Translations under genes and position numbers: made by a program | Assembly (NCBI GenBank): GCA_036003865.1 | Contig: DASYRZ010000054.1 | Span: 28,445 to 60,444 of the forward strand | DNA length: 32,000 nucleotides | Reading direction: 5' to 3' | From: Gemmatimonadales bacterium | Lineage (GTDB): Bacteria > Gemmatimonadota > Gemmatimonadetes > Gemmatimonadales > GWC2-71-9 | Part shown: piece by piece, positions 16,384 through 32,000 of the stretch | Numbering within the stretch: position 1 is the first letter of the stretch | How the letters are laid out: every line of letters starts with the position of its first letter | The notes under the pieces: generated by a model | What the model was told of the DNA's origin: nothing | What the model saw: the letters and a program-made list of their open reading frames with translations, nothing else | The model's database searches: none

Positions 16384-18024
16384 ATGGTCTTCCTGCACAA
16401 GCTTGCGAATCGACTCGCTCGGCTGAAAACACCGTCGCGATTCCTCCTCGCCCTTGTGCTGACGGTTGCGCTGTCGTGCGAATTCCCGCTGAAGCCCCGT
16501 AACACCTCTGGCCCTGTTGTCAGTGTCGTCGTCACGCCCGATGCGGCGAGCCTTCAGGTCGGTCAAACGCTGTCATTGAGTGCCGTGGCCACGGATTCCA
16601 GTGGCCACACGGTTTCCTCGACGATGAGCTGGCAGAGTGACGCGGCCTCGGTCGCCACTGTGGACCAGAGCGGCACCGTCACAGGCCTCGCTGCCGGAAC
16701 GGCGACTATCACCGCCACAACCGAAGGAAAGAGTGGCTCGTCGACCGTAACGGTGACGTCAGTCCCGCCGCCGCCGCCGCCGCCCCCGCCGCCGCCACCG
16801 CCGCCGCCGCCACCACCGTCGCCGCCGCCACCGCCACCGCCGCCGCCGCCGCCACCACCGCCGCCGCCGCCGCCACCGCCGCCGCCGCCGCCGCCACCGC
16901 CGCCGCCGCCGCCGCCGCCGCCGCCGCCACCACCACCACCACCACCGCCTCCGGCGCCTGTGGCGACAGTGTCGGTCAGTCCGAGTTCGTCGAACCTGCA
17001 GGTCACAGGCACGGTGCAACTGACCGCGACCACGTATGACGGGAACGGCAATGTGCTGATCGGCCGCGTAGTCACCTGGGCCAGCGGCACGCCGTCAGTT
17101 GCCACCGTCAACGGCACTGGTCTCGTGACCGGCGTCTCCGCCGGCTCCGCGACCATTACGGCGACGAGCGAGGGCAAGCAGGGCACCTCTCAGATCACGG
17201 TCTCAGCCGGCTCCGGGACCGTAACGCTCACGGGCGCCGGTGACATCGCCGAATGCGGCGACGACACCGATGACAGCACCGCGGCGCTGTTGGGGCGCAT
17301 CGGAGGCGCGTTCTTCACGGCAGGTGATAACGCCTATCCCGATGGCTATTACCAGGACTACGTCAACTGTTGGGGTCCCTCGTGGGGCAAGTACCAGGCG
17401 CAGATGCATCCGGCCGCCGGCAACCACGAATACCACGACGTCGCGTCGGATGCTGGAGCCGATTACTTCCGCTATTTCTACCGCGAGCACGGCACCTGGG
17501 TCGGCGACAGCGCCAAGTACTTCTACAGCTACGATCTCGGCGCCTGGCATATCGTCGTGCTCAATACGTACATCGACAAGTTCCCCGGCTCACCGCAGGA
17601 GCAGTGGCTACGCGCCGACCTCGCCGCGAGCAGCAAGAGCTGCACGATCGCGATCATGCACTACCCGCGATTCAGCTCGGGCGCGAATCACGGCAGCGAC
17701 AGCGATGTGCAGCCGCTGTGGCAGGCGTTGTACGACTTTGGCGGCGAGATCGCGATTGCCGGTCACGACCACGAATACGAGCGCTTTGGGCCGCAAACGC
17801 CGAGCGGTCAGGCCGACACGCAACGCGGCATTCGCTCGTTCGTCGTCGGCACTGGCGGCGGCGGGCTGTATTCCTTCGGCACCCCACTTCCCAACAGCGA
17901 GGCACGGAATAGCAGCACGTTCGGCGTGCTGAAGCTGACGCTGGGGAACGGGACCTATAGCTGGCAGTTCGTGCCAATCGGCGGTCAAACCTTCACCGAT
18001 TCCGGCAGCGGGACATGCCACTAG
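16384..18024 (+). CDS. Lipoprotein A: Big_2 - polyproline linker - Big_2 - purple-acid-phosphatase-like metallophosphoesterase
   Basis: The RBS ggagg lies 9 nt upstream. The lipobox is LTVALSC-EFP. Two Big_2 domains are present (SLQVGQTLSLSAVATDSSG..., VTGTVQLTATTYDGNG...). The MPE motifs are GAGDIAECG, GDNAYPDG, GNHEY (17419-17433), IMHYPRFSS and GHDHEYERF (17761-17787), and the domain ends GSGTCH. Confidence 0.85.
   Translation: MVFLHKLANRLARLKTPSRFLLALVLTVALSCEFPLKPRNTSGPVVSVVVTPDAASLQVGQTLSLSAVATDSSGHTVSSTMSWQSDAASVATVDQSGTVTGLAAGTATITATTEGKSGSSTVTVTSVPPPPPPPPPPPPPPPPPPSPPPPPPPPPPPPPPPPPPPPPPPPPPPPPPPPPPPPPPPPPPPPAPVATVSVSPSSSNLQVTGTVQLTATTYDGNGNVLIGRVVTWASGTPSVATVNGTGLVTGVSAGSATITATSEGKQGTSQITVSAGSGTVTLTGAGDIAECGDDTDDSTAALLGRIGGAFFTAGDNAYPDGYYQDYVNCWGPSWGKYQAQMHPAAGNHEYHDVASDAGADYFRYFYREHGTWVGDSAKYFYSYDLGAWHIVVLNTYIDKFPGSPQEQWLRADLAASSKSCTIAIMHYPRFSSGANHGSDSDVQPLWQALYDFGGEIAIAGHDHEYERFGPQTPSGQADTQRGIRSFVVGTGGGGLYSFGTPLPNSEARNSSTFGVLKLTLGNGTYSWQFVPIGGQTFTDSGSGTCH
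16765..16953 (+). repeat. (CCN)63 trinucleotide tract encoding 18 Pro - Ser - 44 Pro
   Basis: Codons were counted from the sequence. They are mostly CCG with CCA/CCC/CCT, plus a single TCG at 16819-16821. Confidence 0.95.

Positions 18025-32000: not shown

Follow-up and report, generated by a model that had tools for sequence, protein, structure and literature searches.

Do the two kinds of exported protein encoded side by side in this locus act together, and if so, on what? The question is raised by a 32,000-nucleotide stretch of contig DASYRZ010000054.1 from a soil Gemmatimonadales bacterium (the window), whose second half carries five large genes, here called A to E (Table 1). Genes A, C and E encode metallophosphoesterase (MPE) domains of the purple acid phosphatase (PAP) type, and the C-terminus of B and the protein D have in common a domain of about 420 aa, which we named PROP (55% identity over 443 columns, E 1e-172). 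An initial annotation, made from the sequence alone, had read A-B and C-D as a duplicated module in which an MPE lipoprotein is followed by a lipoprotein with an uncharacterised propeller-like domain. The open reading frames (ORFs) and the MPE/Big_2/PKD domain make-up that it gave were borne out by our ORF and Pfam analysis, and the FemAB-like, DegT and GT4 genes that it placed within the island were found. The tight spacing was also confirmed from the ORF coordinates, by which A and B overlap by 10 nt and C and D are separated by 5 nt.

The pairing was analysed in 80 loci from species-representative genomes (numbered with the prefix L), in which PROP and MPE domains were located by hidden Markov models (HMMs) over six-frame translations. 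The initial MPE HMM was a narrow one made from the window only, which under-counted pairings because PAP-type MPEs were missed, and it was replaced by a broader HMM. An MPE within 1.5 kb of PROP or fused to it was found at 20 of the 41 loci of the close class (at least 42% identity to D, L001-L041), and in 7 the two were in the same reading frame; in the distant class (L042-L080, n = 38) both counts were 0. The MPE-positive close-class loci were labelled Gemmatimonadota, Chloroflexota, Armatimonadota, Eisenbacteria, Acidobacteriota, Verrucomicrobiota, Nitrospirota and Methylomirabilota. Where the first HMM had seen no MPE, Metallophos was the commonest neighbour family, and no other partner was recurrent. 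MPE-PROP fusions made up 10 of the 265 PROP proteins collected (all 10 metagenomic), and PROP was fused to two distinct MPE subfamilies, the window type and a type with Pur_ac_phosph_N and Metallophos_C. These independent fusions are strong evidence that MPE and PROP act together. MPE and PROP form a conserved functional unit, which occurs as neighbours or as fusions across many phyla, and the recurrent pairing and the fusions lend good support to the core of the earlier suggestion, that both protein types cooperate beyond the cytoplasm. Without any coupling, the adjacency could have arisen because two abundant families of secreted proteins expanded locally in Gemmatimonadota, as the numerous MPE genes of the carrier genomes and the roughly half of PROP loci without an MPE might suggest. 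But chance adjacency is contradicted by the fusions, which are in frame, independent, drawn from two MPE subfamilies and found in several phyla, and also by the tight gene order (genes overlap by 10 nt or lie 2 to 5 nt apart) and by the retention of both paralogous pairs in several genomes, and we give it hardly any credence.

The closest public relative of the window is the metagenome-assembled genome (MAG) "Gemmatimonadales bacterium SMAG_U2701", whose contigs L019 and L001 jointly show the order A-B-Fem-C / D-GT4-DegT-E at 71-91% protein identity, with the FemAB-like orthologue of L019 (84% identical) in the equivalent position. The GT4 gene downstream of the D-type PROP was kept in L001, L002, L003 and L006, and the DegT gene in L001, L002 and L006. 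The duplication described in the initial annotation stands in so far as there are two paralogous pairs, but it is not recent, and the pairs fall in two old orthologous groups with separate orthologues elsewhere: the B-type is Big_2-PROP (orthologues in L019, L005/L081 and L016), and the D-type is stand-alone or MPE-fused. Both types co-occur in several Gemmatimonadota genomes. Other gene orders were MPE, PROP, Big_2-MPE in L084, PROP followed by a PAP with a type IX secretion system (T9SS) tail in L095, PAP, PROP, GT4 in L096, and PAP, PAP, PROP followed by MPE-PKD and beta-helix giants in L082/83, L085 and L086. All close-class carriers were soil or groundwater MAGs, and all MPE-linked carriers were uncultured. 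Neither of the two outcomes that the initial annotation had named as refuting its reading was obtained: the pairing is present in relatives of the window, and searches of Pfam, NCBIfam, PDB and the literature returned no characterised pathway to which it belongs. No description of the PROP family or of the MPE-PROP pairing was found in the literature.

Some observations on these loci are given for their own sake. In the recurrent cluster of L082/L083, L085 and L086, PROP and two or three PAP paralogues are joined by a protein of the MPE-PKD kind that ends in a FlgD_ig tail and by two of the beta-helix/PKD kind, 1560-1960 aa long. The cluster adjoins Bac_transf and a sigma-54 two-component system, reminiscent of regulation of the PEP-CTERM/exopolysaccharide type. 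Close-class PROP genes (44-53% identity) were also seen in MAGs labelled Woesearchaeota (archaeal; L018) and Candidatus Amesbacteria (candidate phyla radiation; L041), which points to horizontal transfer or to binning contamination.

What kind of domain is PROP? As the initial annotation had supposed, the domain shared by B and D is uncharacterised: no Pfam or NCBIfam family matched it (34 members were scanned against Pfam at E<=10), and two PROP profiles found no relative among PDB sequences and only sub-threshold PD40/TolB and lactonase blade matches. PD40 was seen in 3 of the 34 members at E>=0.017 and TolB at E 0.075, all below threshold. The AlphaFold2 model of D (34-sequence alignment, pLDDT 87.6, pTM 0.86) was all-beta with about seven four-stranded blades, and together with Foldseek it gave a seven-bladed propeller, so the label "propeller-like" was apt. 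Foldseek comparison of this model with PDB returned generic propellers only (TM about 0.4-0.45), the best of them 7-bladed, and since none was good enough, these matches were rejected as a basis for assigning a function. Going by the model, PROP is a previously undescribed family with a known fold, the propeller. The family is large (a library of 1.8 billion proteins contains 1251 of its cluster representatives at E<=1e-3, and 706 at E<=1e-10) and strongly conserved, with a mean column identity of 56% across phyla. About 30 residues distributed over all blades were invariant among 12 members with just 26-47% identity to D (including H99, Y101, D110, D130, N196, H308, D310, H370, R374, R378, D406 and E412), and eight Cys were conserved. 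A fold search of BFVD gave one outstanding match, an unnamed viral protein of 1172 aa (A0A8E5NQ64, E 1e-16, TMq 0.61).

Among the PDB fold matches, the PL22 oligogalacturonate lyases (PDB 3pe7, 3c5m), which are seven-bladed propellers like PROP, took ranks 3, 4 and 6 with the longest alignments. PL22 enzymes act on an anionic (uronate) sugar and are cytoplasmic. Their anionic substrate fits the context of PROP. Unlike them, PROP is an exported protein with many disulfide-forming Cys, and the likeness stops at the fold (11-13% identity, TM 0.43-0.45, rmsd about 11 Å), with no link to Pectate_lyase22 in the Pfam scan of the 34 members at E<=10 or by HMM. The periplasmic propellers of the TolB/PD40 kind resemble PROP marginally at the level of blades and below threshold, but PROP has no Tol-Pal context and another pattern of conserved residues.

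The weak blade similarity to PD40/TolB, which is the only sequence similarity that PROP has, and the mostly non-enzymatic WD40 scaffolds among its best PDB fold matches would also suit a propeller without enzymatic activity. Such a lectin-like or protein-binding PROP would dock the MPE (elsewhere sulfatases or beta-helix glycanases) onto a surface glycopolymer or another envelope component. There is a precedent in the carrageenan sulfatase Psc iota-CgsA, in which propeller modules, known only as models, stand before the catalytic domain, an ester hydrolase acting on an anionic polysaccharide (PMC4144425), and a preprint concerns beta-propeller lectins that recognise cell-surface glycopolymers (bioRxiv 10.1101/2025.04.24.650519). 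Propeller lectins for teichoic acids would be a further parallel. The ester of iota-CgsA is sulfate and its catalytic domain is an amidohydrolase, however, and no sequence match in Pfam or PDB that would link the two came from the PROP profiles. The 56% mean column identity and the invariant His, Asp, Arg, Tyr and Asn in every blade are more typical of an active site, and in many contexts PROP is a protein by itself or the one domain of a large secreted protein that has no explanation, which leaves a purely binding role unlikely.

The gene neighbourhood of PROP is that of sugar-polymer synthesis. Genes for GT4, Bac_transf, Wzx, Wzy, Wzc-like proteins or AsnB lay beside PROP in 9 of 10 Pfam-annotated non-phage contigs. 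The full set of a Wzx/Wzy locus (initiating transferase, flippase, polymerase and co-polymerase) adjoined PROP in L042 and L081/L087: in Caldithrix (L042) a Wzc-like gene was on one side of PROP and Wzx/Wzy on the other, and in the Gemmatimonadota-type contigs L081/L087 the neighbours were Bac_transf, WbqC, Wzc-like, Wzx, Wzy and GT4. Flippase, polymerase and glycosyltransferase genes were beside PROP in L064, the neighbours in L084, L093, L095 and L096 were GT4, PIG-L, Bac_transf, Wzy and epimerase genes (Wzy and GT4 in L084), and L094 had AsnB and a beta-helix giant near PROP. In about 20 Flavobacteriaceae loci a T9SS-tailed PROP was divergent from a GT4x4-AsnB-Wzy-Wzx operon. The MPE-PROP unit is usually in or beside Wzx/Wzy-type polysaccharide synthesis loci, and both of its parts are exported.

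Other lineages gave a related picture. In MAGs of Verrucomicrobia subdivision 3 (L051, 82-14744; L076), PROP belonged to an operon that also encodes five sulfatases, a GH89 and an HGSNAT-like acetyltransferase, which resembles sulfatase/glycoside hydrolase operons for sulfated glycans. Fusion partners of PROP also included CBM96, CBM_4_9, beta-helix/NosD, PKD and Ig domains, and the founding CBM96 binds alginate (PMC9971899). The synthesis-gene context, the CBM96, CBM_4_9 and beta-helix fusions and the sulfatase/GH89 operon together point to PROP as a glycan-directed domain for anionic polymers. It would appear from these sequences that PROP is partnered with a remover of anionic esters, sulfatases in one lineage and phosphoesterases in the subfamily of the window. 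As side observations, GH89 is alpha-N-acetylglucosaminidase, and the operon of L051/L076 looks like one for the breakdown of a heparan-sulfate-like glycan. Among the neighbours of L043-L080 there was one gene for GH88 (unsaturated glucuronyl hydrolase), within four genes of a distant-class PROP; if the two were directly adjacent, this would speak for PROP as a lyase.

AlgL, PslG, PelA and BcsZ are exported polymer-processing enzymes whose genes, inside exopolysaccharide operons, adjoin those for the synthesis of the polymer that each trims. PROP has a position of this kind in the Caldithrix, Flavobacteriaceae and Gemmatimonadota loci, but its fold and sequence are unrelated to theirs, and none of them is known to be paired with a phosphoesterase. 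The nearness to Wzx, Wzy, Wzc and Bac_transf genes, together with phosphoesterase chemistry and a lipid anchor close to the membrane, could mean that lipoprotein MPE and PROP work at a periplasmic export step, releasing polysaccharide from the undecaprenyl-diphosphate carrier or recycling the carrier in Wzx/Wzy pathways. This is very improbable, because some PROP homologues carry T9SS C-terminal sorting domains and therefore act outside the outer membrane; the long Ig/poly-Pro stalks also put the domains far from the membrane, and the module is missing from many Wzx/Wzy loci.

Export of the window proteins was also read from their N-termini. All five had been called lipoproteins in the initial annotation, which was an overstatement: a convincing candidate lipobox (pattern [LVI][ASTVI][GAS]C) is present only in A (ALSC), B (VIAC) and C (ALAC), where it is acceptable under the permissive PROSITE rule, and the sequence C-EFP after the lipobox Cys is indeed seen in the translations of both A and B. 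The lipobox region of E (IATC) has an atypical Thr at -1. In D the Cys of VLAC is residue 13, and homologues of D start with the usual signal peptide of the signal peptidase I type; judged by its N-terminus, D is probably not a lipoprotein. The eight conserved Cys, the signal peptides and the T9SS tails of homologues place PROP outside the cytoplasm. Within 25262-25340, the first approximately 20 residues of D match the signal peptide of P0002, a 728-aa MPE-PROP fusion that is 88% identical to D, and because this P0002-like signal runs straight into PROP, D looks like a fusion gene that has lost its MPE of about 260 aa.

The MPE domains of the window are of two kinds. A, C2 and E1 have the state DDYNHHHH at the eight scored ligand/catalytic positions and keep all seven metal ligands and the five motifs of PAPs (GD, GDxxY, GNH[ED], H and GHxH), and plant PAPs were the best PDB sequence matches (E 2e-11). 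These three domains therefore share every motif and ligand with the known PAPs (kidney-bean PAP, PDB 2qfp/4dhl/1kbp; KEGG "acid phosphatase type 7"). In contrast to the PAPs, the MPE of the window has neither the N-terminal Fn3-like domain (Pur_ac_phosph_N) nor Metallophos_C by Pfam, and a protein has up to three copies of it, at least one, mounted on Big_2/PKD stalks, with three copies degenerate. Elsewhere PROP also pairs or fuses with a second MPE subfamily, which is of the classical PAP type and has both of these domains. Half of the six window domains (C1, C3 and E2) have lost several metal-ligand residues, and in C1 two metal ligands are replaced by Lys/Arg, whereas 115 of the 120 nearest MPE homologues were canonical. 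The degenerate states are kept: that of E2 is identical in the orthologues of L001, L003 and L019, where the E orthologues have the motif states of the window E throughout, and that of C1/C3 is near-unchanged (NDYHKDHR) in the L019 orthologues. C1, C3 and E2, which lack the PAP ligand set, should not be filed as active PAPs; by their sequence they are predicted pseudo-enzyme domains, conserved as such, with basic residues at some metal-ligand positions. A third class, found in MPE domains fused to PROP (DDYDHHDH, 14 occurrences), has Asp where the Asn ligand and one of the His ligands would be, suggestive of an altered metal site and not of lost function. PAP2 paralogues outside the window (L082, L085) were considered as further degenerate cases and rejected, since the alignment shows every motif intact.

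Phosphoesterase domains of this type raise the possibility of phosphate scavenging, which the initial annotation had named beside glycan processing. The MPE arrays and PROP would then free phosphate from environmental organic phosphorus (necromass teichoic acids, phytate, nucleic acids or phospholipid head groups), PROP being a second phospho-ester hydrolase or a substrate-capturing domain, and the glycan genes would be adjacent by chance. Soil metagenomes are very rich in this MPE subfamily, in the form of a secreted "acid phosphatase type 7" of about 300 aa, the close-class carriers all come from soil or groundwater, and exo-enzymes for scavenging typically have several copies of a catalytic domain on long stalks. 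Beta-propeller phosphatases and phytases also exist, but PROP matched neither Pfam Phytase (PF02333) nor PhoX (PF05787) at E<=10, and neither was among the top 50 PDB fold matches of the D model. The loss of catalytic ligands in half of the window MPE domains would be odd for a pure scavenger, no pst or pho gene was seen in the window, the glycan-gene context of PROP persists in lineages that have no MPE, and PROP is fused to carbohydrate-binding modules and beta-helix domains. The genomic context therefore favours the glycan-processing half of the earlier suggestion over general scavenging, which we consider rather unlikely. PhoD and GlpQ of Bacillus subtilis are secreted metal-dependent phosphoesterases that act on a phosphodiester-linked surface glycopolymer as Pho-regulated scavengers, and the fold of PhoD is PAP-like. 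They differ from the window proteins in belonging to another MPE branch and in having no known propeller partner, and PhoD appeared as a weak sub-threshold Pfam match in C.

We infer, as to both substrate and chemistry, that the genes encode an exported module with a division of labour, PROP recognising or cleaving an anionic glycan from which the MPE strips phosphate esters, and we put this forward tentatively, at somewhat short of an even chance. The PAP-type MPE would be displayed at the surface on Ig-like or poly-Pro stalks, and PROP would be the part that faces the glycan, an anionic polysaccharide that it would bind and, as a lyase or hydrolase, probably also cleave, the likeliest polymer being the cell's own phosphate-containing surface polysaccharide or exopolysaccharide. 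The canonical MPE (A, C2, E1) would hydrolyse phosphate mono- or diesters that decorate or link the polymer, and the degenerate MPE (C1, C3, E2), with Lys/Arg for some ligands, may serve as non-catalytic modules binding phosphate esters. The outcome would be trimming, remodelling or turnover of the polymer, with parallels in the glycanases of other exopolysaccharide operons and in the sets of sulfatase and glycanase that serve sulfated glycans. A bolder version, which must be called doubtful, is that PROP is a new carbohydrate-active enzyme family of exported propeller lyases or hydrolases for anionic glycans, one subfamily of which has co-evolved with PAP-type MPE to depolymerise or remodel phosphate-containing polysaccharides of the glycosyl-phosphate or phospho-decorated kind, with the degenerate MPE as phosphate-ester binders, a pseudo-enzyme counterpart of the carbohydrate-binding module.

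Several points weigh against a glycan-processing module. The function proposed for the PROP family is read from sequence and context. An MPE is missing from about half of the close-class PROP loci and from all 38 of the distant class, so PROP can do without one. The window-type MPE is also very common in the form of stand-alone "acid phosphatase type 7" proteins, as would suit enzymes that simply scavenge phosphate. In the AlphaFold2 model of P0009, a natural MPE-PROP fusion, the pTM was 0.62 and the MPE part was poorly resolved, and this model is therefore silent on a fixed interface between the domains. The PL22 fold match is weak (TM 0.45, 11-13% identity), generic WD40 propellers score equally, and the Pfam scan and PDB profile searches showed no CAZy-type sequence signature in PROP. 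The window contains no Wzx, Wzy or Bac_transf gene and is by content not a Wzx/Wzy locus, so the local link to glycans is through the GT4, DegT and Fem-like genes only; as the window ends inside E, further genes may lie beyond. Some PROP homologues are also on phage-like contigs without glycan genes.

The homologues concerned (L088, 4493-5893; L089, 1940-3253; L090-L092) have 28-38% identity. They were found on phage-like contigs, where the neighbouring genes are those for RNA ligase, DUF3987, dGTP diphosphohydrolase, nucleoside deoxyribosyltransferase and portal, and on three IMG/VR contigs. A tblastn search with PROP against cultured phage genomes gave no match.

The features of the window, which has a G+C content of about 65%, are collected in Table 1.

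Table 1 Genes, domains and repeats of the 32,000-nt window (positions counted from its first nucleotide)
Feature	Position	Strand	Description	Motif state or basis
Housekeeping region	1-16100		S8 peptidase, RecO, SelB, AlaRS, PcrB homologue, SDR, CCA-adding enzyme, ZIP transporter, MgsA	
SelB gene	4065-6164		selenocysteine elongation factor	
PcrB-family gene	10190-11035		geranylgeranylglyceryl- or heptaprenylglyceryl-phosphate synthase type, between AlaRS and SDR gene	
Shadow ORF	12340-14064	-	miscalled by greedy ORF calling	
23S rRNA intervening sequence protein family gene	14229-14636	-	upstream of MgsA	
Gene A	16384..18024	+	predicted lipoprotein: Big_2, poly-Pro spacer, Big_2, canonical PAP-type MPE (17218-18021)	Pfam; DDYNHHHH
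(CCG)65 tract	16765..16958	+	in-frame, about 65 successive Pro between the two Big_2 domains of A	
Gene B	18015..20444	+	predicted lipoprotein: Big_2 x3, then 420 aa without family, PROP (19140-20441)	Pfam (Big_2)
Tandem repeat in B	18426-19173		258-nt unit, 2.9 copies, 86% alike, encoding Big_2 domains	
FemAB-like / Acetyltransf_6 (GNAT) gene	20585..21640	+	between pairs A-B and C-D	
Gene C	21645..25256	+	TTG start; predicted lipoprotein MPE(C1)-PKD-PKD-MPE(C2)-PKD-Big_2-MPE(C3)	Pfam
MPE C1	21783..22574	+	degenerate	NDYNKDHR
MPE C2	23121..23927	+	canonical	DDYNHHHH
MPE C3	24468..25253	+	degenerate; 87% identical to C1	NDYNKDHR
Gene D	25262..26695	+	exported stand-alone PROP (domain 25340-26692)	no Pfam family
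(GGGGGGGCA)x4 repeat	26618-26654		Gly/Ala-rich loop near the C-terminus of D	
GT4 glycosyltransferase	26674..27828	-	convergent with D, 3' ends overlapping	
DegT/DnrJ/EryC1 sugar aminotransferase	27825..29114	-		
Gene E	29354..32000	+	MPE-PKD-MPE, then Big_2 repeats; cut by the window end	
MPE E1	29480-30298	+	canonical	
MPE E2	30572-31366	+	degenerate	NDYDKHHQ

Greedy ORF calling was unreliable for some of the high-GC genes, preferring the shadow ORF of Table 1 over the genes for the CCA-adding enzyme and the ZIP transporter, so conclusions on neighbourhoods were based on HMM and tblastn matches and on precomputed gene calls. A scan of the window for promoters and terminators gave no signal beyond shuffled expectation. 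Three repeats were seen in the PROP and MPE genes. The poly-Pro tract of A would form a rigid spacer of about 20 nm, or it may be a hypervariable or assembly-prone repeat; the tandem copies in B indicate a recent internal domain duplication; and the loop of D encoded by the short repeat is missing in homologues and corresponds to the low-confidence stretch 454-463 of the model. Among the housekeeping genes, the presence of SelB indicates that the organism uses selenoproteins.

A family as large and strongly conserved as PROP that has no relative in Pfam, NCBIfam or PDB is a real annotation gap, and its carriers belong to abundant uncultured soil phyla. Distant PROP homologues lie beside a Wzx/Wzy operon in cultured Flavobacteriaceae (Bizionia, Lacinutrix, Xanthomarina and Hanstruepera), and the family is therefore open to genetic testing. 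The conserved degenerate MPE domains would show clearly how a phosphatase fold can be turned to binding. If PROP is glycan-active and coupled to phosphoesterases, it would be a new enzyme family and the pair a turnover route for phosphorylated polysaccharides, which would bear on the remodelling of biofilm matrix and on the organic-phosphorus cycle of soil.

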